Positions 23,343 to 60,972 of a stretch of DNA of 64,000 nucleotides are shown piece by piece. Within the stretch, counting starts at the first letter, position 1. Each line of letters starts with the position of its first letter. A program made the position numbers and the translations under genes. The notes beneath the pieces were generated by a model that was not told the DNA's origin, did no database searches, and saw only the letters and a list, made by a program, of their open reading frames with translations. This DNA comes from an uncultured bacterium (GTDB lineage: Bacteria > Fidelibacterota > Marinisomatia > SCGC-AAA003-L08 > JACNLC01), in NCBI GenBank assembly GCA_964527215.1, contig CAZGNZ010000012.1, positions 1,025-65,024 of the forward strand, read 5' to 3'.

Positions 23343-23519
23343 CAATTTACTTAAGCCGACCGCAACGCATGTCACGCCCTTTGCAGAAAGGCAAAGGCCG
23401 CGCCAAGCTCCGGCGGCTTAGTTTTACCGTTTGCTGAACGCAATCATTCCCGGTTCAGTTGAATCGCATTTAACCGTCCGCCTCCTCGGAGCAGAACTTG
23501 AACCGGGATTCAGCCTTTT

Positions 23520-23609
23520 AAATCCGCCAGTGGGCGCGGCGGCGAAATTTTAATACCCCGATTGATTACGGATACCCCGTCCCGTCAGCAGACTGGTAGG
23601 GAATTCATT
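23520..23609 (+). repeat. dispersed structured repeat, copy C (3' module only)
   Basis: AAATCCGCCAGTGGGCGCGGCGGCGAAATTTTAATACCCCGATTGATTACGGATACCCCGTCCCGTCAGCAGACTGGTAGGGAATTCATT aligns by eye with the 3' ~95 nt of copy B (43395-43487). Confidence 0.75.
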
Positions 23610-23709: not shown

Positions 23710-26700
23710 ATGAAGCTATCCATAATGGTTATAATAGCTGCGCTTGGCATCGGGTTTGTGTCAGGACAGCCGATTTATTCAACACTAACTGGTGGAAACT
23801 GGTCTGATCCCATGACCTGGGTCGGTCAGGTTGTACCGGGTGATGATGATGATGTGTTTATTGAAGGCCCTGTGCTGGCTGACATCAGCAGCAGCTGTCA
23901 AAACCTGACCGTCAGCGAGACGGGTTCGCTAATGAATCAGGGCTCCAGGGTGATTACCGTATCAGGTTCCTTTGACAATGCCGGGACAATTGCGAATAAT
24001 CCGGCTGGGTACAGTCTGACGCTCAATGTGGCAGGTGATTTTTCCAATTCCGGGACAATGTCCCATCATGATACCAATCTTACAGGATCGAACAGCATTC
24101 AATTTTCCATGACAGGCGGAGAGTTTTCGGGAACCTATCTGGATATTGCTGAGGCAGGTAAGATTGTCAGTCTGGAATCGAATCTGACCTTCAGCAATAC
24201 GATGATCGACCTGAGCGATGCGACTTTGATTTCCGGCGGCAGTATTACGGTCTTCTTGACTGGCGGATTTTTGAGGGACGGGATTTGGGAAGCCAACGGC
24301 TCGACCCTGAGCATGGCCGGAAACAGTTATACGGATGATATGGTGATTTCCAATGTTGTTCTGGAAGATACGGTCCAGGTTGCAGGCAATGTGTTTTTTA
24401 CCGAATCCGCGACAAACAACGGAACCGTACAGAATTACTCTTCCAGCCGGGTGCTCACCATTCAGGGAAGTATCACGAATAACGGGTCCATACGAAATAA
24501 TCCGGCCGGATATTCCCTGACGGTCAGCTGTCAGGGCGATCTTACAAACAATGGCGACTGGAATACCTATGATCTGAACCTGGAACCGGTAAACGAACCG
24601 GGAATCACCATCACCACCGGTTCGGACAGCTATTTTCAAAGCACCTATATTGACCGATCGGCTGGCGATTACGCCGTCAGTATTGCTTCCGATGCGGTCT
24701 TTTATCATTCATCTATTGACCTGAATGACGGAGTGATGATCCTGTCCCAGCCTTCTTCCCTGACACTGCATAACAGTATTCTTAGAGATGGAACACTGAA
24801 TGCAAATAATAACGGATTGGCCCTGTTTGACAATTCTTATCTGAACGACATCTCAGTTGACAGTGCGGTGACCGATGGAATCATTCAGGTATCATCCACG
24901 GTATATTTTACCGGCGGTTTGATCAATAACGGCTCTCTGGTGAACTACTCAAATTCATCATACACGGTAACGGTCGATGGAAATCTGGTCAACAACAGCA
25001 TCATCGGCAACAATGAATCCGGAAATACACTGACGATGGTACTGGACGGCAATCTCACCAATTACGGAAGCCTGTCAAATTCCTCAATCCAACTCGCCGG
25101 TGTCGATGATATCACCATCGATTTTGGTGAATCGGGTGTTTGCAGCTGCAGTTATTTCAGAACCAGCAGTTTGATGGAGGGAAATCTCACCGCCGTCAGC
25201 GAACTGCATTTTGTCGGGACAGAATTGGATTTTAACGATGCTGTGCTGACTCTTCCGGCTGACGGACTGCTTTCTGTTGTGGGGGGGGTGCTGCGGGATT
25301 TTCAAATCATCGGATCAGGTTCAGTAATCCATACTTCCGACGGTGCGTATTTTAATGATATCACGGCTGATAACATCGAACTGGCCGGGACCGCCCGTAT
25401 TTCCGGGAATGTCACTTTCACCACCTCCGTTACCGTTCAGGATACACTGGAAAACAATTACAATTCCAGCTATACCCTGACTGTGGACGGTGACTTGATG
25501 AATAATGGTACAATCCGCAACTCACCGGCCGGATACAACTTCAGTATGAACATATCAGGGAATATATCTCAAAATGGAGTATGGGATTTTTATCAGACTT
25601 CCCTGACAGGATTAACAGATCAGTGGCTCAGCCAAAGTGAAGGCTCGCTATTCTCCGGCAGCCGTTTTCTGGATACCAACAGTTCATCGGGAATCCACAG
25701 CGGAAGTCCGCTGTCATTCCAGGGCATGGAGCTTGATCTGAACGGAGCGGTTTTAACCCTCGAGGATGGTCATTCACTCACCATTACCGGTACAGCAAGT
25801 GACTGCATCACTGACGGCACAATAATGAGCAACGGCAACGCGGTCCATACAAGCGGAGGATTTTACCTTTCGGGAATCATGATTGAAAACGGTGCAGTGC
25901 TGTCTGGAGACATCACCATAAGCGGAACAGTCACAGCTCTGGGTCAGGTGGTTTTGAACGGCATGGTCATGAATCGGTCAAACAGCTCCTATACGCTGGT
26001 GATAGACGGTGACCTGATCAACAACGGGAGTATCGCAGACAACAGCGCATACAGCCTGTTTCTTCAACTTACCGGGAATCTGGAGAACTACGGACTGATT
26101 TCCAATTATTCGGTCAGTCTTACAGGTGACTCGGCTCAATCGATCCAGGCCGGGGAAGGGATTGTATTTTCACCCGGCAGTTTTACCGATTCCAATGCTT
26201 CATCCGCTGTGTATTTTCTAAGCCCGCTTGCATTTGAAAATACCACACTTGATTTTAACAATGCCGAAGCAGTTCTGGAACCCGGCGCAAATCTGACAAT
26301 CTCCGGTTCTGAAAGCCACAGCCTTAATGATGTGGTAATAACGGGCAGCCATAACATCATTACCGCTTCGGGGGGAATGTATCTCAATAATGTCCATGCC
26401 GATAACATCGTTTTGGACGGGGTACACATCATCGCCGGCAATATTGTATTAAGCGGGGAAATACAAAACATTGGCGAAATCCGGAATCGCAGCAATTCAT
26501 CCTACACCCTGCAGGTTGAAGGAAATCTGGTCAATGAAGGCGCCATCTCCAATAATATATACAGCCTGCAGGTCGAGATCACCGGTGATTTGACAAATTC
26601 AGGATCAATTGATGTTAACCGTCTTCGTTTCCGGGGAGCGGAACCGCAGAGCATCACGGCTGCGGGAGATGCCTGGTTTGGAATGACCTATTTTGATACC

Positions 26701-28587
26701 GCCGCGCCGAATACAGCCGTCAACCTTGCTTCATCAGTGGAATTCAGCGGAGTTTCAACCGATTTGAACGGCAGTACGCTGACAATCGGGGAAGGAAACA
26801 TCCTTGGATTATCCGGCGGTTACCTGTCTGACTGTACCCTGAGTGCCGGGTCTGTGAACAGCGGCGACGGAGCATATCTGTCGAATCTCGAGCTGGTTGA
26901 TATCACGCTGCAGGGGGAAACCTTGATTTCTTCAAATGTGGTTTCCAGCGGTCTTCTGGTCAACGAAGGATTCCTGTGGAACAGAAATACCGGCAGTTAT
27001 CATCTGGATGTGAACGGCAATGTCTGGAATCGCGGATCCCTGGCAGACAATCCAAACGGCTACCAGTTGACGTTTGATGTGTCCGGAACTCTGGTCAGTG
27101 AAGGCAGCTGGCAGCCGTACCGAACGTATCTGGACGGGGCATCTGATCAGGATGTTCTCCTGATTTCAGGAATGGATATGGGCGACGGCTTGTATCTTGA
27201 ATCACAGCATTCAGGCAGCAGTATGCAGTGGTACCGGGACGGTGTTGCTTTGGATTCTGATGCATATAACGGGGAAAATTCTGCGACTCTGGGTTTTGAA
27301 GAGGATATAACCGACAGCGATGCCGGAACGTATTACTGCATCTCAACCGCCGGACAGTCGCGTAATTTCCACTTTGCTGCCGGAACAATTGGATGCATGG
27401 ATCCCGCCTCCGTGAATTATGATCCGAATGCGGTCTGGGACGACGGCAGCTGCATGTATGCGGTTTACGGCTGTACGGATGAAAACGCCTGCAATTATGA
27501 TCCGAATGCCACTATTGATAACGGTTCCTGTCTGTATGATGACTGCAGCGGAGAATGCGGTGGTGTGGCCTACATCGACGACTGTGGGGAATGCGTAGGC
27601 GGTTCCACCGGAATGATGCCCAACTGGGCGATGGATGACTGCGGTGTCTGTTTCGGCGAAAATGCCGACATGGACTGCAGAGGCGTATGCTTTGGTGAGG
27701 CCTTTGAAAACGAGTGCGGCTGCGTTGGCGGAACGACTGGACTGCAGCCGGATTTCTGTTACGGCTGCATGGACGAAACCGCGTTCAATTATGACCCGAA
27801 TGCCGTGTTTGATGATGAATCCTGTTATTATGGTGCCGTTGGGGATATGAATGGTGATCAGACCATCAATGTGCTGGATGTTGTCGTGTTGGTGGAGGGG
27901 ATCCTGGAACAGGAATTTGATGAGTACGAGTCATGGGCCGGGGATGTCAGCGGCGACGGCGCAGTCAATGTGCTGGATGTCGTCATGCTGGTGGATATCA
28001 TCCTTTCAGGTGCTCTGAGTCGCGGGGAACCGTTATCCGAGGTGAGCTACCGGCTCAGCCGCACCCTGGAAATTTTCCCGAACGGTGCAATGGCTGCCTG
28101 TCAGATCAGTGTCACCGGGAATCTTCAGACGGTTTCCGATGATTTGCCGGATGGCTGGTTCATGGATCAGCGGGATGGGATAATCCTTATCTACAATACT
28201 GCCGGTCTGTCTATTGAACAGAAGCTGAGCCTGAGAACAGTCGGTGACGGCGATGTGACCGAACTGCTGGCTGCCGACTGGCACGGCTTTGCGGTTGCTG
28301 CCGAAGAACTGCTGCTGCCGGAGAGGGCAGAGCTGGGTGATGCTTTTCCCAATCCGTTCAACCCGGTGACAAAAATTCCATTTACTCTGCCAAAGGACTG
28401 CTGCGTGGATATGAAAGTGTACAATATTCGCGGTCAGCAGGTTTGCACGCTGCTGGAAAACAGTACACTGCCGGCCGGTTCATACAATATTAATTGGAAT
28501 GCCGGTGAAAGCCCTTCCGGTGCTTACATGATCCACCTGACGACCGGAAACACCACTCGAACAGCAAAGGTTATTCTGATGAAATAG
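23710..28587 (+). CDS. giant secreted repeat protein: ~7 beta-helix-like modules + Ig-like + Cys-rich modules + dockerin-like module + T9SS C-terminal sorting domain
   Basis: Signal peptide. Seven modules of ~165-173 aa anchored by S(S/R)YTLTVDG.L.NNG.I.NNPAGYSLT. GTYYC Ig-like segment. C.D..A.NYDPNA..DDGSC occurs three times, and there are CGECGG/CGVC stretches. GDMNGDQTINVLDVV...GDVSGDGAVNVLDVV is dockerin-like. FPNPFNP...AKVILMK is a T9SS type-A CTD. Confidence 0.85.
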   Translation: MKLSIMVIIAALGIGFVSGQPIYSTLTGGNWSDPMTWVGQVVPGDDDDVFIEGPVLADISSSCQNLTVSETGSLMNQGSRVITVSGSFDNAGTIANNPAGYSLTLNVAGDFSNSGTMSHHDTNLTGSNSIQFSMTGGEFSGTYLDIAEAGKIVSLESNLTFSNTMIDLSDATLISGGSITVFLTGGFLRDGIWEANGSTLSMAGNSYTDDMVISNVVLEDTVQVAGNVFFTESATNNGTVQNYSSSRVLTIQGSITNNGSIRNNPAGYSLTVSCQGDLTNNGDWNTYDLNLEPVNEPGITITTGSDSYFQSTYIDRSAGDYAVSIASDAVFYHSSIDLNDGVMILSQPSSLTLHNSILRDGTLNANNNGLALFDNSYLNDISVDSAVTDGIIQVSSTVYFTGGLINNGSLVNYSNSSYTVTVDGNLVNNSIIGNNESGNTLTMVLDGNLTNYGSLSNSSIQLAGVDDITIDFGESGVCSCSYFRTSSLMEGNLTAVSELHFVGTELDFNDAVLTLPADGLLSVVGGVLRDFQIIGSGSVIHTSDGAYFNDITADNIELAGTARISGNVTFTTSVTVQDTLENNYNSSYTLTVDGDLMNNGTIRNSPAGYNFSMNISGNISQNGVWDFYQTSLTGLTDQWLSQSEGSLFSGSRFLDTNSSSGIHSGSPLSFQGMELDLNGAVLTLEDGHSLTITGTASDCITDGTIMSNGNAVHTSGGFYLSGIMIENGAVLSGDITISGTVTALGQVVLNGMVMNRSNSSYTLVIDGDLINNGSIADNSAYSLFLQLTGNLENYGLISNYSVSLTGDSAQSIQAGEGIVFSPGSFTDSNASSAVYFLSPLAFENTTLDFNNAEAVLEPGANLTISGSESHSLNDVVITGSHNIITASGGMYLNNVHADNIVLDGVHIIAGNIVLSGEIQNIGEIRNRSNSSYTLQVEGNLVNEGAISNNIYSLQVEITGDLTNSGSIDVNRLRFRGAEPQSITAAGDAWFGMTYFDTAAPNTAVNLASSVEFSGVSTDLNGSTLTIGEGNILGLSGGYLSDCTLSAGSVNSGDGAYLSNLELVDITLQGETLISSNVVSSGLLVNEGFLWNRNTGSYHLDVNGNVWNRGSLADNPNGYQLTFDVSGTLVSEGSWQPYRTYLDGASDQDVLLISGMDMGDGLYLESQHSGSSMQWYRDGVALDSDAYNGENSATLGFEEDITDSDAGTYYCISTAGQSRNFHFAAGTIGCMDPASVNYDPNAVWDDGSCMYAVYGCTDENACNYDPNATIDNGSCLYDDCSGECGGVAYIDDCGECVGGSTGMMPNWAMDDCGVCFGENADMDCRGVCFGEAFENECGCVGGTTGLQPDFCYGCMDETAFNYDPNAVFDDESCYYGAVGDMNGDQTINVLDVVVLVEGILEQEFDEYESWAGDVSGDGAVNVLDVVMLVDIILSGALSRGEPLSEVSYRLSRTLEIFPNGAMAACQISVTGNLQTVSDDLPDGWFMDQRDGIILIYNTAGLSIEQKLSLRTVGDGDVTELLAADWHGFAVAAEELLLPERAELGDAFPNPFNPVTKIPFTLPKDCCVDMKVYNIRGQQVCTLLENSTLPAGSYNINWNAGESPSGAYMIHLTTGNTTRTAKVILMK
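23944..27180 (+). repeat. in-frame tandem protein modules (~500-nt period, diverged) inside the giant gene
   Basis: Anchor motifs recur near aa 79, 243, 415, 585, 758, 928 and 1093 of the ORF. Confidence 0.7.
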
Positions 28588-38522: not shown

Positions 38523-39251
38523 TCAATTTCCATGTACATTGGGTGGTGATTCTGTATTATCTGCCTCGTGAGTAATTCCACCGCCTACACCACCATCTGA
38601 TGCATCGTTATCCATGTTCGTTTTTGTCATATCCAGTTCCCCATCTGCTTTTTCTACTCCTTCAGGAGCATATGCCGATGTTTCCTCACCATCTGATACA
38701 TCGTTATCCATGTTTGTTTTTGTCATATCCAGCTCCCCATCTGCTTTTTCTACTCCTTCAGGAGCATCTTCCGATGTTTCCTCACCATCTGATGCATCGT
38801 TATCCATGTTTGTTTTTGTTATATCCAGCTCCCCGTCCGCTTTTTCTATTCCTTCAGGAACATCTACCGATGCTTCCTCACCATCTGATACATCGTTATC
38901 CATGTTCGTTTTTGTCATATCCAGCTCCCCGTCTGCTTTTTCTACTCCTTCAGGAGCATTAGTGGGGGTCCCTTCACTTATTTCATTCTGATGACGGTCT
39001 TCACCTATTATTGTTGAAGATCCATTTTTTAATGGTGTTTTAAAATTTCGCAGTTCTTGGGTCCCAACAGCAATGTCTTTAACATGTCCCCAATTTTGAA
39101 TCTTATGTTGAGCATACCAAGAAAGGGAGATAGGGCCTACCCACAACGGAGATATAATCGTTAATCCTATCCTAATAGCCTTTGGAATTGATGGACTCCA
39201 ATTCATTGGTATTGATCTGTATATTATAGTTTTTTTGACATTGTCTGGCAT
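38523..39251 (-). CDS. membrane-anchored acidic tandem-repeat protein
   Basis: N-terminal hydrophobic segment, then ~3.8 copies of the 32-aa unit APEGVEKADGELDMTKTNMDNDVSDGEETS... Confidence 0.6.
   Translation of the reverse strand: MPDNVKKTIIYRSIPMNWSPSIPKAIRIGLTIISPLWVGPISLSWYAQHKIQNWGHVKDIAVGTQELRNFKTPLKNGSSTIIGEDRHQNEISEGTPTNAPEGVEKADGELDMTKTNMDNDVSDGEEASVDVPEGIEKADGELDITKTNMDNDASDGEETSEDAPEGVEKADGELDMTKTNMDNDVSDGEETSAYAPEGVEKADGELDMTKTNMDNDASDGGVGGGITHEADNTESPPNVHGN
38593..38960 (-). repeat. 96-nt tandem repeat, ~3.8 copies, in frame within the 242-aa ORF
   Basis: The unit CCATCTGATGCATCGTTATCCATGTT...TTCCTCA recurs head-to-tail with only a few substitutions per copy. Confidence 0.85.
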
Positions 39252-41117: not shown

Positions 41118-42566
41118 ATGAATCAGAATATCATCAAACAGTTCTGCAGCTGCATCGGCAGTTCATTCGTCATTCGGGAACCGGACGCCTGTGAGGCTTA
41201 TGCCCAGGATGAATACCCCGGACGAAAGTTTTACCAGATTCCCGGAATCGTATTAAAACCGGGCTCTGCATCAGAGGTTGCTGCAGTGATGCGGATTTGC
41301 AGCGATAACAAAATTCCTGTGACGGTTCGCGGCGGCGGAACGGGACTTGCGGGTGCCTGTGTCCCGAATCCAGGCGGTATCGTATTGTCAATGGAACGAT
41401 TGAATCGACTGGTAGATGCAGATTCTGAGAATCAGACCATAACCGTGGAAGCCGGAATGACTCTTTCCCGATTCTATCGCGAAGTGGCGAAAACCGGCTT
41501 GTATTTTCCACCGCATCCCGGAGACGACGGGGCATTTACCGGCGGGATCGCTGCCACCAATGCCGGAGGTGCAAGAGCCGTAAAACATGGTACAGTCCGC
41601 AAATTCATCCGGGGGATGGAAGCCGTGACCGCTCAGGGAGATATCCTGCAGCTTGGCGGGAAATATATCAAATCCAGCAGCGGATATCCCCTGATGCAGC
41701 TCATCATCGGTTCGGAAGGAACCCTGGCGGTAATCACCCAAATTACATTCTCTCTGGTTCCTGCACCGAAAGCGCAGTGCACCTTGGTGGTTCCGTTTGC
41801 ATCCGTTACCGAAGCCATTGATTCAGTATCTGCCATCCTGAATGCCGGCCAGATACCGCTGGCAGCAGAGTTTGTCGAACACCCGGTACTGAGACTGGCT
41901 GAGAATATGACCGGACTCCGCTGGCCCGCTGAGGATGGGTCCGCATCACTTATGTTTATTCTGGATGGGAACAGCGAGGATCAAGTGATGGACCAGGCGG
42001 TGAAAATGGGTGAAATTCTTCAGCGAAACGGAGCGCTGGATATACTGGTGGCCCAGGAAAAACGGCAGCAGGCCGATATACTTAAACTGAGGTCAGTTCT
42101 CTATGAGGCACTGCGTCCCGGTGTGGCCGATATGTTTGACATTTCCCTGCCCAGATCTGAAATCACCGGACACATCACGGCGATCCATCAGCTGGAAGAA
42201 AGGCTGAACATTCATCTGCCGACCTATGGGCATGCCGGCGACGGCAACCTCCATACCCACTATATGCGCAGGGAAATTAAAGACGGTGCACTGAGTACGG
42301 AAATTCCGAACTGGGAAATACTCCTTCCTGATGTTCAAAATTCATTATTTTCCGACGTGCGGAAGCGGGGCGGTGTGATATCGGGAGAACATGGAATCGG
42401 GCTGGCTAAACGGAAGCAGTTAAAATCATTTATGGATCCGGTGCAGCTGGAGCTGATGAAGGGAATAAAAAAACAGTTTGATCCGCAGTGCGTTCTGAAT
42501 CCCGGAAAAATATTTGAATCCGCCAGTGGGCGGGTTTTTAATCCGTCTCCTGACGGAGAAGTGTAA
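41118..42566 (+). CDS. FAD-binding oxidase (GlcD / D-lactate dehydrogenase-like)
   Basis: The FAD-binding PCMH pattern VTVRGGGTGLAGA and the C-terminal GEHGIG..K...FDP..VLNPGKIF are typical. The start is taken at ATG 41118, and the upstream part of the ORF looks non-coding. The last ~16 codons lie in repeat copy A. Confidence 0.8.
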   Translation: MNQNIIKQFCSCIGSSFVIREPDACEAYAQDEYPGRKFYQIPGIVLKPGSASEVAAVMRICSDNKIPVTVRGGGTGLAGACVPNPGGIVLSMERLNRLVDADSENQTITVEAGMTLSRFYREVAKTGLYFPPHPGDDGAFTGGIAATNAGGARAVKHGTVRKFIRGMEAVTAQGDILQLGGKYIKSSSGYPLMQLIIGSEGTLAVITQITFSLVPAPKAQCTLVVPFASVTEAIDSVSAILNAGQIPLAAEFVEHPVLRLAENMTGLRWPAEDGSASLMFILDGNSEDQVMDQAVKMGEILQRNGALDILVAQEKRQQADILKLRSVLYEALRPGVADMFDISLPRSEITGHITAIHQLEERLNIHLPTYGHAGDGNLHTHYMRREIKDGALSTEIPNWEILLPDVQNSLFSDVRKRGGVISGEHGIGLAKRKQLKSFMDPVQLELMKGIKKQFDPQCVLNPGKIFESASGRVFNPSPDGEV

Positions 42567-42683
42567 TTGGGTGCATTCCCCGCCGCTTGTTGAAAATCCG
42601 CCATTTGGCGTGGCGGCAAAATGAAAAATGATTATATCACTAATGATACCTCACCCGTCAGCTGACGGGCGGGGAAATTCATT
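42516..42683 (+). repeat. dispersed structured repeat, copy A (full length, ~168 nt)
   Basis: Collinear with copy B over its whole length, and with the reverse complement of copy D over ~112 nt. Contains the perfect palindrome CCCGTCAGCTGACGGG at 42654-42669. Confidence 0.85.
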
Positions 42684-42728
42684 GATGCCGACCTGCACTG
42701 TCACCACAGAAATTTTAAAAGAAAAGCA

Positions 42729-42754
42729 AAAGGCTGCGATATCCACAGCCTTTT
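42729..42754. terminator. bidirectional rho-independent terminator
   Basis: AAAGGCTG-cgatatcca-CAGCCTTT is flanked by an A-run upstream and a T-run downstream. It can terminate the + oxidase transcript and the - strand tRNA-Ser. Confidence 0.65.
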
Positions 42755-42821
42755 AAAAAGTTGAACTTCATCCAACCGGAAGTTCGTTCCGCAGCCGGCG
42801 AATCTTTCGTCAGCCTGCCTG

Positions 42822-42905
42822 CGGAGGATGAGGGACTCGAACCCCCAAGGGCGCAAACCCGGCGGTTTTCAAGACCGCTGCCTTACCAATTAGGACTAAT
42901 CCTCC
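42822..42905 (-). tRNA. tRNA-Ser (anticodon TGA)
   Basis: Read on the minus strand: acceptor GGAGGAT/ATCCTCC, D stem GTC/GGC, anticodon stem GCGGT/ACCGC with loop CTTGAAA, long variable arm CGGGTTTGCGCCCTTG, T arm GGGGG-TTCGAGT-CCCTC, discriminator G. No CCA. Confidence 0.88.
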
Positions 42906-43000: not shown

Positions 43001-43270
43001 TTAAATTTCTTCCCTGTAATTGATTTTACAGCCGCATCCGTCCCACATCCGTTCATATGTCTCTAAACGGTCGCTGACAAATTTCCGGGCGCTATCCAGG
43101 GAATCAGACTTCCGCAGCAGAATCTCCTTTTTATCGGATTCTTCAATAATTAAATATTCATGATCCTTTCGCATAATAGCAATCAACCCGCAGATGCAGG
43201 TGTCATGTTCCTGAACCAGTTCAGAAGAATCCCTGAGTTCACGGAGTTGATCAGCGCTGATAATTTCCAT
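43001..43270 (-). CDS. small Cys-motif protein, function unknown
   Basis: 89-aa ORF with CIC and MWDGCGC motifs. Lies between the two full-length repeat copies. Confidence 0.45.
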   Translation of the reverse strand: MEIISADQLRELRDSSELVQEHDTCICGLIAIMRKDHEYLIIEESDKKEILLRKSDSLDSARKFVSDRLETYERMWDGCGCKINYREEI

Positions 43271-43318
43271 TGCGTATTCCTCAGATTAAATTACTTTCAG
43301 GTCAGTTCCGGTAGGTTT

Positions 43319-43487
43319 GAAACCGCCAGTTGGCGGGTTTTAATTCCTCTCCTGACAGACATGTGTAACAGGGTGCATTCCCCGCCGCTTGTTGAAAATC
43401 CGCCATTTGGCATGCCGGCGAAATAGTTAATGCCCCGATCGATTACTGAACCCCCGTCACGTCAGCTGACGGGCGGGGAAATTCATT
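43319..43487 (+). repeat. dispersed structured repeat, copy B (full length, ~169 nt)
   Basis: GAAACCGCCAGTTGGCGGGTTTTAATT...GGGTGCATTCCCCGCCGCTTGTTGAAAATCCGCCATTTGGCATGCCGGCGAAAT...GTCAGCTGACGGGCGGGGAAATTCATT. Same order and orientation as copy A. Confidence 0.85.
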
Positions 43488-53361: not shown

Positions 53362-54446
53362 TAGAAAATATGACGAAATATACATTAAACGAACTTGGAT
53401 TTGGGACCCATCAGGAAAAATTCCGCCAGGAAAATGAACTGGGCGAAATGCCGCCGGGCAGGGTGACTGCCGTTCATCGGGAACGATATTCCGTTTGGAC
53501 TGAAGAGACCGAGCTGGAAGCAGAACTCATTGGACACTTGAGATTTGCATCCGAATCACCATCGGATCTGCCTGCTGTTGGAGACTGGGTGGTGGTGGAT
53601 GTATTTGACGGTCACCGGGGACTGATTCACGGTGTATATCCTCGAAAGAACTCACTGGAAAGGCAGGCTGTTGGTAAATTCGGCGAAACCCAGATTATTG
53701 CCGCAAACATTGACACCGCCCTGATAGTACTTGCCGCTGACAGGGATTTCAGCATCAACCGGATCGAAAGATATCTTGCGGTGTGCCATTCCGCTGAGAT
53801 ATTTCCAGTCATTCTGCTGAGCAAAACGGATTTGCTTGATCATGATGAAACCATGCAGCTGACTGATATGATCGGTAGCAGAATACCGGGCATTCCATGC
53901 ATCCCAATGAGCAATGAAACCTGCCTGGGCCTCGACCGCATCAGGGAATATCTGGCTCCCGGAAAGACCTGCTGTCTTCTGGGATCATCGGGTGTGGGCA
54001 AATCCACACTTCTGAACCGTCTTGCCGGCAGGCCGGTGATGGAAACCGCATCCATCAGTGTCAGCTCGGACCGGGGACGGCATAAGACCACCCGCAGGGA
54101 GCTGATCATGCTTTCGGAAGGCGGGATGATTATCGATAATCCCGGTATGCGCGAAGTGGGACTGGCCGATGCGGAAAAGGGTCTGAGTGTCACATTTGAT
54201 CCTGTGATGCAGCTGGCGGAAAACTGCCGTTTTTCAGACTGCACCCATCAGAATGAAGCTGGCTGCGCAGTGCTGGCGGCGGTTGAAAGCGGCGAACTGG
54301 ATTCTGCCCTGTATGCACATTATGTAAAGCTGAGAAAAGAACAGGCGCACTTTGAATCCACCGTCTCAGAACGGCGCCGAAAAGACCGTCAGTTCGGTAA
54401 AATGGTAAAACAGATCAAGAAAGAAAAAATATTCAAGCGGATGTGA
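53358..54446 (+). CDS. rsgA: ribosome small-subunit-dependent GTPase A
   Basis: Circularly permuted GTPase: LLSKTDL (G4), then GSSGVGKSTLLNRL (G1). Zn-finger CRFSDCTHQNEAGCAV. Confidence 0.9.
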   Translation: MIENMTKYTLNELGFGTHQEKFRQENELGEMPPGRVTAVHRERYSVWTEETELEAELIGHLRFASESPSDLPAVGDWVVVDVFDGHRGLIHGVYPRKNSLERQAVGKFGETQIIAANIDTALIVLAADRDFSINRIERYLAVCHSAEIFPVILLSKTDLLDHDETMQLTDMIGSRIPGIPCIPMSNETCLGLDRIREYLAPGKTCCLLGSSGVGKSTLLNRLAGRPVMETASISVSSDRGRHKTTRRELIMLSEGGMIIDNPGMREVGLADAEKGLSVTFDPVMQLAENCRFSDCTHQNEAGCAVLAAVESGELDSALYAHYVKLRKEQAHFESTVSERRRKDRQFGKMVKQIKKEKIFKRM

Positions 54447-55339
54447 GGAAGTTGCCGGACACTTCGAAATACCCCTTGTCAGTAATCCTGGATACCGCCA
54501 GGAATGATTCGCGTATTCGAGCCGTCCTTCTGAACGGATCCCGTGCCAATCCAAACTGTCCTGCAGACCCGTTTCAGGATTTCGATATTGTGTATTTTGT
54601 CCGCGAACCTGCTTTTTTTAAGAATAACCTGAACTGGATCAATCGCTTTGGTGAACTGATGATCCTGCAGATGCCGGAACCCGGATTCAATACCCCGGAA
54701 CTGGATATGAACTCCTTTGTCTATCTCATGCAGTTCAAAAACGGCTTTCGCATCGATTTGACGGTCATTCCCGTACATCACCTGGATTTGGTTCGCTGGG
54801 ACAGCCTCAGCGTGGTTCTGCTGGACAAAGACAGACTGCTGCCGGCATTACAGCCGCCGAATGAATCTGACTATTATCCGAATCCTCCGACTGCCGAACA
54901 GTATTTTCACTGCTGCAATGAATTCTGGTGGCTCTGTCCAAGTATCGCCAAAGGACTTTGGCGCAGTGAAATTCTGTATGTAAAACATTTTCTGGATCAT
55001 TTTCTCAGGAAACAGCTGGAAAAAATGCTGATCTGGAAAGTGGGAATTCAAACGGAGTTTGAGGTGAATCCGGGAAAATGCGGGAAATATCTGGACAAAT
55101 ATCTGACTGCTGACGAATGGAATCTGCTTCTGGAAACATGGTCATCCGCGGTCGTACCGGCGGTGTGGGATGCGCTGTTTGCTCAAATCTCGCTGTTTCG
55201 ATCCAGTGCATTGTCAGTGGCGGATGAATTCGGATACTCGTACCCTGACGCTGAGGACCGGCGTGTTACGGCTCATTTAAGGCATGTTCGCGGTTTGCCG
55301 TCCGATGCAGGCAGAATATATCCAAACGAGGGCAGATAG
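54443..55339 (+). CDS. aminoglycoside 6-adenylyltransferase family protein (AadK/ANT(6)-like)
   Basis: RIRAVLLNGSRANPNCPADPFQDFDIVYFV and CCNEFWWLCPSIAKGLWRSEILY closely follow the pattern of B. subtilis AadK as I recall it. A GTG start overlaps the rsgA stop. Confidence 0.8.
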   Translation: MRKLPDTSKYPLSVILDTARNDSRIRAVLLNGSRANPNCPADPFQDFDIVYFVREPAFFKNNLNWINRFGELMILQMPEPGFNTPELDMNSFVYLMQFKNGFRIDLTVIPVHHLDLVRWDSLSVVLLDKDRLLPALQPPNESDYYPNPPTAEQYFHCCNEFWWLCPSIAKGLWRSEILYVKHFLDHFLRKQLEKMLIWKVGIQTEFEVNPGKCGKYLDKYLTADEWNLLLETWSSAVVPAVWDALFAQISLFRSSALSVADEFGYSYPDAEDRRVTAHLRHVRGLPSDAGRIYPNEGR

Positions 55340-57291: not shown

Positions 57292-58698
57292 ATGCAGAGG
57301 GTGCACATGATGAAATGCTTAACACCAATAGTGCTGATTCTCGGAATCTTGATTGCCGGAGATTTGCCCATGAACAACATGGAATACTCCAGGCTGACCA
57401 CCCGGGATCAGTTTGTCGTCATCGGCTGGAATGATTTAGGGATGCACTGCGCAAATCAGAATTTTGCCAATCTGGCGGTTCTGCCACCGTACAATACGGT
57501 CCGGGCACAGGTGGTTCTCAAACCCGAGTCGGGATTTCCTCAAATCATTACAGAGGATATTCGACTTAATTATTCCATCCCGGGAAATACATTTTCTGTG
57601 GGAAAAACCAATTTCTGGGAATATGCACAGGATCTGTTCGGACTGCCTGAACCGCTGCCGGATGATATCGGATTAACCGGTCTTGGCTTATCCGGAGAAA
57701 TGAGTGTGCACGATGGGTATTTTGAAGCTTCTGGAATCCCGGTCACACCGTTTACGGATGATGATCTTGTGAATGAAGCTCCCTATCAGCTGATCCATCT
57801 TGTAGCGGAAAGAATCAGCACTGGTGAAATATTGGCGGAGACGGATGTCACCATTCCCGTCAGCAATGAAATCGGATGCGTACAAGGAGGCTGCCATTCA
57901 TCAGAAACAGGTATTCTGTGGTCCCATGAAAATGAAGACGGTTATAATCCGGCTGATACACCCATTCTGTGTGCTGAATGCCATGCATCCAATGCTCTTG
58001 GAACCACGGGAGATCCGGAAGCGCGTTTCCTGTCCTATCGGATTCACGAGGAGCACAAGGAAGATGCCGGTCCGCTGTACAGCATCCAGACCTGCTATAA
58101 ATGTCATCCGGGACCGGATACCCAATGTTTCCGTGGCGTAATGGCTGATGGAATCGACAATCCTATGATCTGTCAGGACTGTCATGGAACCATGTACACA
58201 ATTTATCAATCCATCAATGCCGGTCGTGAACCCTGGCTGGACGAACCGGCATGCGGCGCTGCGGAGTGTCATGGTGCAGAGTACGCTGAGCAGCCCAACA
58301 CTTTGTTCAGAGAAAGTACCGGCCATGGAGGACTGTACTGCTCCGCATGTCACGGCAGTCCTCATGCGATTTACCCTTCGAGGGAAGACAATGACAATGT
58401 TCAAAATGTTTCACTGCAGGGACATGCAGGAACTTTGGGCACATGCACTGTCTGTCACACATCCATCCCCGGCGCACCGGGTCCGCATGGGTATATTCCG
58501 GATCCCATGAGCTTTCCAGGTGATGTCAATACGGACGGCAGTCTGGATGTCACGGATATTGTGCTGATGGTCGGGTTTATTTTAGGTACCCAGAATCCCA
58601 GTCCGGAGATATTCAGCATTGCGGATGTGAATCAGGACGGCAGTCTGGATGTACTGGATATTATTCAGGTGGTTCAGATGATCATCGGGGATCAATAA
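57292..58698 (+). CDS. secreted multiheme c-type cytochrome with C-terminal dockerin-like module
   Basis: Signal peptide. Five CxxCH motifs (CAECH, CYKCH, CQDCH, CSACH, CTVCH) plus two Cx4CH motifs (CVQGGCH, CGAAECH). C-terminal GDVNTDGSLDVTDIVLMV...ADVNQDGSLDVLDIIQVV. Confidence 0.8.
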   Translation: MQRVHMMKCLTPIVLILGILIAGDLPMNNMEYSRLTTRDQFVVIGWNDLGMHCANQNFANLAVLPPYNTVRAQVVLKPESGFPQIITEDIRLNYSIPGNTFSVGKTNFWEYAQDLFGLPEPLPDDIGLTGLGLSGEMSVHDGYFEASGIPVTPFTDDDLVNEAPYQLIHLVAERISTGEILAETDVTIPVSNEIGCVQGGCHSSETGILWSHENEDGYNPADTPILCAECHASNALGTTGDPEARFLSYRIHEEHKEDAGPLYSIQTCYKCHPGPDTQCFRGVMADGIDNPMICQDCHGTMYTIYQSINAGREPWLDEPACGAAECHGAEYAEQPNTLFRESTGHGGLYCSACHGSPHAIYPSREDNDNVQNVSLQGHAGTLGTCTVCHTSIPGAPGPHGYIPDPMSFPGDVNTDGSLDVTDIVLMVGFILGTQNPSPEIFSIADVNQDGSLDVLDIIQVVQMIIGDQ

Positions 58699-58835
58699 TC
58701 GTTATAGTCCGGATATTTCATGAGACTTCGTGATGAGATGATGAAAATGTAATGATGCGGAAAAAGCAAAAATTCAACACATTTAAGTGCTGACAATCAA
58801 TGAAGCTTTTTCCGTTAAAGCACCCATGGGTTCTC

Positions 58836-58947
58836 AATGAATTTCCCCGCCCGTCAGCTGACGGGACGGGGTATCATTAGTGATATAATCATTTTTCATT
58901 TCGCCGCCACGCCAAATGGCAGATTTTCAACAAGCGGCGGAAAATGC
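58836..58947 (-). repeat. dispersed structured repeat, copy D (inverted orientation, lacks the 5' ~55 nt)
   Basis: The reverse complement reads GCATTTTCCGCCGCTTGTTGAAAATCTGCCATTTGGCGTGGCGGCGAAATGAAAAATGATTATATCACTAATGATACCCCGTCCCGTCAGCTGACGGGCGGGGAAATTCATT. It differs from copy A at only a handful of positions. Confidence 0.85.
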
Positions 58948-59017
58948 GAAGCATTTTACGCATAGATATTCTCATGAAATATTCGGGACAGGGTGTAAAA
59001 AAAGTGAGGAGGGAATT

Positions 59018-59784: not shown

Positions 59785-60972
59785 GTGAGTCGATTACATA
59801 TCTTCTTCCAGTTTAGACATATTCTTGGCCCGATTATCCTTTTTTGCATATGCCCGGCGCAGAATCCGTTACAGATTACGGACAATGACTTTGTGAATTA
59901 CATGCCGTCCCTGATTCAAACGCAGACCGGCCGGTTCATGATTGTGTACGAGCAGTTGGACAGCGGATTCGGCAGCGGGGATCTGCTGGTAACCATATCC
60001 TCGGACGGGATACTCTGGAGCGAACCGGAACCGATTGTTTCGGGGCCTGGAAACGATCGTCATCCGTCACTCATTCAGCTGAATGACGGCTCATTTCAGG
60101 TATATTATCTGTCGGATATAAGCGGCGGCTACCGCATCAGAATGGCCTGGTCGGAAAACGGTACTGATTGGATGGATGCAGGGGATGTGGATCTTGGCTG
60201 GCCGCAGTCCACCCAGACAATCAATCCCACCGTAATATTGGAAAGTGACGGCTCCTTGACCATGAGTTACGACATCCTCTACGGCGGCGGATATGTGTCC
60301 CATTCCGCAGACGGGGCTAGCTGGTCGGAGGACCATACCTGGGTCAGCAGCGGTGCACTGAATCGAATCATGCGGCATCAGAACGGAACCTATCTGCTCA
60401 GTTATCAGCAGCAGACGGGCAGTCAGTACTATCAAATAGACCTGTTTACACGCACTTCCCAGAATCTGACAGACTGGACGCCGGAAAATCAGGTAACATC
60501 CAATTTGAATTCCCATGATTCGTTTCCCATTCAGCTTGCCGACGGAGAATACGGATTGTTTTATGCCCGGTCGGACAATAATGCACCCTACGACCTGGTA
60601 CGGTTGGCTTCTGACGACGGCCTGAACTGGGATGACCAGGAGTATCTTTTTCCCGATCCCGGATGGGACACCCAACCTCATCCTATCCTCACTGCGGACG
60701 GTGATATCGCCCTGGCCTGGGCCAGAGGTCCCTCTCAAAATACCACGGAAGTGTTCTTTGTGCTGATCCCCGGAACCGGCAGCGATTGTGACGAGACGCC
60801 CGGTGATGTCAACGCAGACGGGATCATCAATGTGCTGGACATCATTTCCATTATAAATTTTATATTAGGGTTATCTGATCCCACGGAATGCCAGTTTTCG
60901 GCAGCGGATATGAATGGGGATCAAACACTGGATATTCTGGATATTATATTGATAGTAAACGTGATAATATAA
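59785..60972 (+). CDS. BNR/Asp-box beta-propeller (sialidase-fold) protein with C-terminal dockerin-like module
   Basis: Asp-box-like SSDGILW, SENGTDW, SADGASW and SDDGLNW. C-terminal GDVNADGIINVLDIISII...ADMNGDQTLDILDIILIV. Confidence 0.75.
   Translation: MSRLHIFFQFRHILGPIILFCICPAQNPLQITDNDFVNYMPSLIQTQTGRFMIVYEQLDSGFGSGDLLVTISSDGILWSEPEPIVSGPGNDRHPSLIQLNDGSFQVYYLSDISGGYRIRMAWSENGTDWMDAGDVDLGWPQSTQTINPTVILESDGSLTMSYDILYGGGYVSHSADGASWSEDHTWVSSGALNRIMRHQNGTYLLSYQQQTGSQYYQIDLFTRTSQNLTDWTPENQVTSNLNSHDSFPIQLADGEYGLFYARSDNNAPYDLVRLASDDGLNWDDQEYLFPDPGWDTQPHPILTADGDIALAWARGPSQNTTEVFFVLIPGTGSDCDETPGDVNADGIINVLDIISIINFILGLSDPTECQFSAADMNGDQTLDILDIILIVNVII

Follow-up and report, generated by a model that had tools for sequence, protein, structure and literature searches.

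Small, hairpin-rich, non-autonomous repeats of bacteria are a kind of sequence that is already known. Palindrome-associated transposable elements (PATEs) are gene-less derivatives of IS200/IS605 insertion sequences (ISs), and the palindromic elements of Rickettsia are AT-rich, confined to that genus, inserted in frame within genes and translated in the host protein. ERIC/IRU, RU-2/YPAL and Correia sequences are small mobile repeats of enterobacteria and Neisseria (PMC3184786, PMC2759123), while Chunjie, a Geobacter transposable element of the miniature inverted-repeat kind (MITE), carries 21-bp inverted repeats and 9-bp direct repeats (PMC3184786). REP and REPIN sequences are presumed to be served in trans by a single-copy HUH enzyme, RAYT (PMC2817692). 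Here we describe a dispersed repeat of ∼170 nt in a 64,000-nt stretch of contig CAZGNZ010000012.1 (the whole of this stretch is called the window below) from a Marinimicrobia-like bacterium of the FCB (Fibrobacteres-Chlorobi-Bacteroidetes) group, where one copy has given a glcD-like FAD-linked oxidase gene a foreign end. The repeat family is genuine and previously unnamed. On balance, it is probably a small, non-coding, non-autonomous mobile DNA element that inserts 3′ of TTGAA without target duplication, and not an RNA gene.

To locate repeats, the whole window was compared with itself, copies were compared with each other by BLAST, and a degenerate core pattern was run on the window and on 100 shuffles. 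The pattern gave exactly four matches, at copies A to D, against an expectation of 0, and all four copies claimed in an earlier note on this DNA were recovered at their places by the three approaches, two of them in amended form. Copy A is full length (42514 to 42683, plus strand), with a TTGAA(T) junction at 42514 to 42519 followed by the element up to its end in GAAATTCATT. Copy B (43317 to 43487, plus strand) is also full length and occupies the divergent spacer between an 89-residue open reading frame (ORF) on the minus strand and an operon of TetR and alpha-beta-hydrolase genes on the plus strand. Copy C had been placed at 23520 to 23609; its existence and 3′ end stand, but its start is at 23459, and it proves to be full length though decayed (23459 to 23609, plus strand), having lost the 5′ hairpin and the conserved 23-mer by deletion and carrying a 3′ palindrome disrupted with no compensating change. 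The position and inverted orientation of copy D (58836 to 58947, minus strand) were as described, with the correction that it is 5′-truncated; it runs antisense to both flanking genes. In the whole-window search, A and B were 88% identical between 42533 to 42622 and 43335 to 43424 and 100% identical over a 28-nt block (42656 to 42683 and 43460 to 43487), whereas A and D were complementary at 95% (42573 to 42650 against 58870 to 58947) and at 100% (42654 to 42685 against 58834 to 58865). By BLAST, copy A matched D at 93.9% over 114 nt and B at 82.2% over 174 nt. Past a terminal CATT, sequence divergence was abrupt in all window copies, which lie scattered across at least 44 kb and whose contexts are unrelated. 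The additional relics claimed earlier were not found, as a profile search detected nothing further in the window. The expectation of more copies beyond the four did hold, given a fifth copy past the window end and breaks at copies in other assemblies; four of these five copies lie on the plus strand of the contig, though the number is small. Copies A and B, in direct orientation and 803 nt apart, bracket tRNA-Ser(tga) (42821 to 42905) and the 89-residue ORF (43001 to 43270), for which no family match was found.

Beyond the window organism, 22 metagenome loci were found, about 15 of which carry a second form of the repeat that is characteristic of Desulfobacterota. In pattern scans this form is ∼90 nt long, with a ∼120-nt variant in which a hairpin is duplicated, and diverged copies were added by profile hidden Markov model and covariance-model searches of the fetched loci. 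It was present on 14 contigs of the Desulfobacteraceae metagenome-assembled genome (MAG) ALSabin.42, in two Desulfosarcina MAGs and in one other delta-proteobacterial MAG. The scans also returned a shorter window-type copy, without cassette and palindrome, from a MAG labelled as Cloacimonadota (locus L007), and locus L009 proved intermediate, with a 5′ hairpin and end of the window type around an interior of the Desulfobacteraceae type. Modules have recombined, as seen in tandem composites (L049, L013 and L027). An alternative 5′ module (GCGAACTGGAAATCGAT.TTCATCC.T.CGGTG...) precedes the same core and 3′ end at four places (L013, 1740 to 1831; L027, 7190 to 7290; L015, 27 to 130; L036, 7330 to 7429), and in L013 and L027 it directly follows a first copy, forming a tandem composite. 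The identical 23-nt core and the shared architecture make the repeats of the FCB-group bacterium and of Desulfobacteraceae and Desulfosarcina one family, and its presence in both of these distant phyla therefore implies horizontal spread; its hosts form an unusually wide range, from the FCB group to Desulfobacterota, and the repeat is thereby a marker of horizontal exchange in anoxic communities. In scans with the window-type core pattern, a single genome locus matched, whereas metagenomes and viral contigs gave no match; a 20-mer likewise had no match in viral contigs, and a pattern scan for the 3′ palindrome returned only single chance matches in unrelated genomes. The earlier note could assign the repeat to no named family, and Rfam searches agree. 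At the Rfam gathering threshold the window yielded only tRNAs (best sub-threshold hits, 16 to 21 bits), 15 related loci gave no Rfam match at an E value of ≤1, and permissive scans up to E values of 1 to 10 were also empty. A full-text search of one paper library for the core sequence found nothing.

All forms of the family share one layout: a TTGAA junction, a 5′ module, the core, a local hairpin, a GC-rich hairpin, GCGGCGGGG (which pairs back to the core in every form) and a right end that reads TTCAA in the Desulfobacteraceae type and TTCATT in the window type. The parts that the earlier note had described for copy A (5′ hairpin with T-run, core hairpin, palindrome and terminal pairing) are all where it put them. 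The first is a terminator-like hairpin, CCGCC-AGTG-GGCGG, followed by GTTTTT (42520 to 42539, plus strand); the glcD reading frame runs through it before reaching the stop codon, and its equivalent in copy B was also called terminator-like. Hairpin and T-run are both present in A, B, the fifth copy and L007; L009 has the hairpin without the T-run, and the combination is absent from the Desulfobacteraceae type. Next comes an invariant 23-mer, GGTGCATTCCCCGCCGCTTGTTG (42570 to 42592, plus strand), identical in A, B, L007 and L009, 20 bases of which were found in all Desulfobacteraceae copies; within it, TTCCCCGCC (42576 to 42584) is complementary to GGCGGGGAA (42668 to 42676). The window-type core AAATCCGCCATTTGGCGTGGCGGCAAAAT (42594 to 42622, plus strand), containing the hairpin CCGCCA/TGGCGG, is a paralogue of the 5′ hairpin module, and positions 4 to 23 of copy A also match copy C at 23517 to 23536. 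A variable cassette follows (42623 to 42653, plus strand), of which, as had been claimed, A and D share one version and B and C another (alignment of copies and BLAST). The 3′ part consists of a perfect 16-nt palindrome, CCCGTCAGCTGACGGG, which was read in the sequence and returned by the repeat search and forms a subterminal hairpin (42654 to 42669, plus strand), and of the terminus GGGCGGGGAAATTCATT (42667 to 42683, plus strand), whose ATTCA is complementary to TGAAT at the 5′ junction.

The rule of insertion is unusually clear: the element sits 3′ of TTGAA, often at a TGA stop, with no duplication. TTGAA directly precedes all five window-type copies, and all Desulfobacteraceae-type copies are preceded by TGAA or CGAA, position −1 being T in 10 of 13. 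The TGA within TTGAA explains why the element is often found on a native stop codon. Of the 27 independent copies of the Desulfobacteraceae type, 7 follow a long ORF in the same orientation whose stop is precisely the TGA of the 5′ TTGAA; these ORFs have native C-termini (for example, MacB-type ...ALRHE*), and a response-regulator gene in L060 is an additional case. Other copies lie a few nucleotides past a stop, between genes of an operon (glyQ-glyS in L026) or beside the stop of a convergent gene, and the flanks of 13 copies held no direct repeats. Gain and loss can be followed at an antiporter/response-regulator locus of Desulfosarcina, where the element is present in L015, L021 and L036, reduced to the 12-nt remnant TGAAGGGTTCAA in L060/L061 (whose antiporter is 90% identical to the L015 protein) and absent from L059 and Desulfosarcina alkanivorans (L062), with the stop at the same codon in all genomes. 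At the stop of the next gene, L060 has a 48-nt internally deleted copy and L036 has none, in flanks that otherwise differ at 2 to 3 positions. The empty site in L036, CACTTTGAATATC, already holds TTGAA and the native TGA stop, and the difference between these two near-identical genomes is a clean 48-nt insertion at TTTGAA^TA. Since the empty site already reads TTGAA, insertion took place 3′ of this motif with no duplication, or at most of 2 nt (AA). The MITE-like termini proposed in the earlier note thus survive in part: the ends are complementary, but over only 5 to 7 nt, the left "inverted terminus" is at least partly target sequence, and no target-site duplication was seen. The repeat occurs in multiple copies per genome, in both orientations, as intact, truncated, internally deleted and decayed copies with interchangeable modules.

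In the window, insertion of copy A has changed a protein. The glcD-like gene (41118 to 42566, plus strand) ends within copy A, as had been noted from the sequence, and takes its last 16 codons (ESASGRVFNPSPDGEV) and its TAA stop (42564 to 42566) from the element. Its match to the Pfam family FAD-oxidase_C finishes at residue 526 of the 543-residue ORF, at NPGKI(F). Among 120 GlcD homologues, 108 end 0 to 3 residues past NPGK[IV]x, leaving the window protein 16 residues longer, and the tail occurs in none of the 120. Together with the habit of related elements of inserting at gene ends, this supports the proposal that the element inserted where glcD natively ends. Its entry into the final glcD codons was in another frame, and the gene now reads through 16 element codons to the element's TAA. 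The junction TTTGAA may itself be native glcD sequence that was used as the target, because some of the homologues natively continue ...IFE. Outside the element, between copy A and tRNA-Ser(tga) (42821 to 42905, minus strand), lies a bidirectional terminator-like hairpin (42727 to 42755), which is probably the working terminator of glcD. The repeat thereby accounts for both the foreign C-terminal tail and the internal terminator-like hairpin of the oxidase gene.

Other assemblies of the window organism, reached through window proteins, and Logan contigs were compared with the window, and they break at the copies. A contig from 16 samples ends at 42542, 27 nt into copy A, Logan contigs begin at 43420 and 43460, both inside copy B, and a contig from 15 samples begins at 58959, at the edge of copy D. 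A break point shared between copies is what a multi-copy repeat would cause in k-mer assembly, and the repeat is a source of assembly as well as annotation errors in short-read data from this organism. The contig that begins at 58959 continues for 3.7 kb beyond the window and breaks off in TGAATCCGCCAGTGGGCGGGTTTTTAATC, with which the fifth copy begins (L075, 8677 to 8705; about 67635 in window-equivalent coordinates, plus strand). An ORF runs into this copy in the same frame in which glcD enters copy A (…IESASGRVFN). Its match to the AbiEii toxin family (PF08843) is confined to the first quarter, profile positions 13 to 58 of 238, and for this reason the fifth copy probably sits inside a gene. 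Separately, two independent Logan contigs end at 23378 to 23386, ∼75 nt upstream of copy C, for no visible reason, copy C being too diverged to cause an assembly break.

We favor a non-autonomous mobile element because the repeat is multi-copy, occurs in both orientations with truncated and decayed copies, shuffles its modules and has sharp ends, and because its left motif pre-exists in an empty site, no duplication accompanies it, one copy is probably intragenic, and the family spans phyla. Such an element would be moved in trans by an enzyme encoded elsewhere, most likely a single-strand HUH-type enzyme such as an IS200/IS605 TnpA or a REP-associated RAYT-like transposase, as subterminal hairpins are what enzymes of this type recognize, and their insertions, made 3′ of a short specific target, carry no duplication. 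Single-strand HUH transposition appears to be the sole known mechanism to combine hairpin ends, a short target kept at the left junction and seamless insertion. The complementarity of target TTGAA and right end (the "closing stem") may serve recognition of the target or of the cleavage site; neither IS608 nor ISDra2 is known to have a target that complements its right end in this way. Effects on the host (terminator-like hairpins, structures at mRNA 3′ ends and altered C-termini) would be by-products.

Several observations weigh against this explanation. No transposase with matching ends was found: there is none among the window proteins (Pfam), and none is annotated in the annotated related loci. 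A tblastn search with a provisional IS608 TnpA query, which gives no more than a lead, returned only an unrelated IS200-like remnant in L007. A parent IS with the same ends was not found in ∼613 kb, and a pattern search for both ends around a gene gave noise. The geometry of the left end is unlike that of IS608 and ISDra2, in that the window-type hairpin starts 1 to 2 nt past the junction and the left and right hairpins are dissimilar. Finally, the clean pair of occupied and empty sites is a single one, involves a 48-nt internally deleted derivative and would allow a 2-nt (AA) duplication, and the window's own copies yielded no empty site, owing to poor sampling of the lineage (the best GlcD homologue of the window protein is 57% identical). 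The remnant in L007 (4270 to 4400, minus strand) comprises a hairpin, ACTGTC-TTCG-GACAGT, ∼25 codons of the N-terminus of a Y1 transposase (…YKCDYHIVWTPK) and a second hairpin, GACGCC-GAAG-GGCGTC, and it resembles a PATE of another family.

A bolder idea, which we regard as speculative and rather improbable, is that the family represents an undescribed form of transposition. A gene-less hairpin element would pick TTGAA by pairing with its own right end (TTCAA/ATTCA) and, since this target includes TGA, would home onto stops and operon junctions while doing little harm, an undescribed enzyme carrying it in trans from phylum to phylum; or else a conserved factor that binds RNA or DNA would use the invariant 23-nt core as its handle. 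Should a mobilizing enzyme be found, pairing of target and right end would offer a simple system for studying how hairpin elements choose their targets.

The other readings (functional RNA, classical MITE, attC site and omega-RNA) are less likely. We consider it unlikely that the repeat is a cis-acting structured RNA, that is, a 3′-untranslated or intercistronic module which terminates, stabilizes or processes mRNAs and is kept at gene ends by selection, its copies reflecting repeated recruitment. Many copies do lie inside operons, in sense, between a stop and the next ribosome-binding site (for example, glyQ-glyS in L026 and L015), and the 5′ hairpin and T-run look like a terminator; but copy D is antisense to both of its neighbors, and in copy A the terminator-like hairpin precedes the stop codon, where it would be harmful if it worked. 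Folding divides in the same way. Copy A (−72.1 kcal/mol) has a z score of −4.4 against shuffles (−3.6 for the other strand) and copy D reaches −3.6, yet copy B attains only −1.5 and Desulfobacteraceae-type copies fold no better than shuffled sequence (z = +0.1 to −1.6), so that fold stability is not significant in these GC-rich hosts. In 16 hand-picked copies the long-range helix was 84% paired with little covariation, and the local hairpin CCGCTT/AAGCGG was 93% paired with three compensated pairs. Under a three-way-junction covariance model of 34 copies, 85% of cells pair and 13 pairs have changed on both sides, a number reached by 0 of 500 shuffles, although the alignment behind this count had been fitted to that model. 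The helices seem to matter, but recognition of hairpins in single-stranded DNA by an enzyme would conserve them equally well. With 29 G·T pairs against 52 C·A mismatches, the forward strand is not favored, a comparison confounded by a search pattern that fixed one strand of the main helix. Copies have been truncated, deleted or allowed to decay uncompensated (C, L060, L007), and Rfam offers no match even at E values of 1 to 10. The structural-RNA idea of the earlier note gains no specific support: helices are conserved, yet neither strand stands out, and in old copies the decay is uncompensated.

A classical DDE-type MITE, whose inverted termini would be very short ((T)TGAAC ... GTTCA(A)) and which would show a 2-bp AA duplication and be mobilized by an IS of the same genome, strikes us as doubtful, and more so than the RNA module. 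The 5- to 7-nt terminal complementarity and the AA at both junctions of the 48-nt indel, a possible 2-bp duplication, would fit it, but TTGAA is present in the empty site, which makes the left "repeat" target sequence, and the ends that remain (CCGCG... and ...GGGTTC) are not inverted repeats. The window-type end CATT is hard to square with an AA duplication, and no variable direct repeats surround any copy. A candidate partner, an IS256-family element 70 nt from the L007 copy, was dropped, its ends being unrelated to those of the repeat; this IS (L007, 1986 to 3318; Mutator-type transposase, 397 bits) has 38-nt imperfect inverted ends, and AbiEi and AbiEii genes lie downstream of it.

It is very improbable, and already largely refuted, that the repeat is not mobile at all and arose by local duplication or gene conversion of a terminator region, or as attC-like recombination sites of cassettes. 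The 803-nt spacing and direct orientation of A and B around a tRNA gene might suggest duplication, and attC sites also start at stop codons; AAC...GTT stands at the ends of the two-hairpin type. However, copies occupy unrelated contexts over at least 44 kb and 14 contigs in another phylum, and a clean insertion polymorphism exists (L060/L036). The neighbors are housekeeping genes without cassette arrays, no integrase was found (Pfam search of the window; annotated loci), most copies lack the GTT core, and spacers of 15 to 19 nt on one side and 1 to 3 nt on the other are unlike attC. An omega-RNA or reRNA scaffold of a TnpB- or IscB-type nuclease, present as solo right ends with the flank past CATT as guide, is scarcely credible in spite of the ∼170-nt length, structured body and sharp 3′ boundary followed by unrelated sequence, since no TnpB or IscB gene occurs in the window (Pfam) or is annotated in the annotated related loci, no Rfam omega-RNA matches, and large internal deletions and module swaps are tolerated. 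Further ideas were dropped on reading the sequences: a SECIS element (the TGA ends native C-termini), a small toxic peptide (the short ORF exists in the A/D cassette only), a sigma-54 promoter and a CsrA site.

The window is otherwise ordinary chromosome, with argS, mnmA, purL, an operon for RND efflux, glycosidases and secreted proteins that bear dockerins. Its PurL is 75 to 79% identical to proteins of FCB-group and Marinimicrobia MAGs, and in a relative at 79% PurL identity (L065, overlapping L066/L067) no copy of the repeat was found in the ∼22 kb read. A streptomycin adenylyltransferase/ANT(6) family gene (54443 to 55339, plus strand; PF04439, 334 bits) follows rsgA in a chromosomal operon. 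Several secreted proteins have dockerin type I modules (57292 to 58698, 59785 to 60972 and 27841 to 28004); these proteins include a BNR-repeat protein, an ORF with weak matches to multihaem cytochrome c7/c3 and a 1625-residue repeat protein (23710 to 28587). A 96-nt tandem repeat (38591 to 38959; 3.8 copies, 93% matches) lies within a minus-strand ORF (38523 to 39251) that has no Pfam match.

Among described systems, classical MITEs differ from the repeat. Correia sequences and MITEs such as Chunjie have long inverted termini and target duplications, both absent here: the terminal complementarity of 5 to 7 nt falls short of terminal inverted repeats of at least ∼10 bp, and there is no target-site duplication. 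ERIC/IRU, RU-2/YPAL and Correia sequences have no sequence relation to the repeat, yet they too are imperfect palindromes of 100 to 170 nt in transcribed intergenic regions, vary in size by indels and at times overlap gene ends, adding residues to proteins. The palindromic elements of Rickettsia are likewise small palindromic repeats translated within a coding sequence, as is the glcD tail, but they insert in frame inside genes, whereas this repeat mostly abuts stop codons. REP/BIME sequences, and REPINs with RAYT, resemble it in their GC-rich palindromic units, mosaics of modules, tens of copies per genome and positions downstream of stops and inside operons. They differ in that a REP is a 20- to 40-nt imperfect palindrome with a GTAG head, absent here, set in alternating orientation, against a unit of 90 to 170 nt in which several unlike hairpins occur; most REP families have a narrow distribution, whereas this one crosses phyla, and no RAYT was identified for it. 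PATEs depart from the repeat in that the hairpins of their two ends are similar and subterminal, at a distance from the cleavage sites, and in their guide tetranucleotides, whereas here the left and right hairpins are dissimilar, the left one lies 1 to 2 nt from the junction in window-type copies, and no Y1 transposase partner is known. In other respects the two agree: both are small and non-coding with subterminal hairpins, lack long terminal inverted repeats and target duplication, insert just 3′ of a short, fixed target of 4 to 5 nt that is retained at the left junction, and come and go seamlessly.

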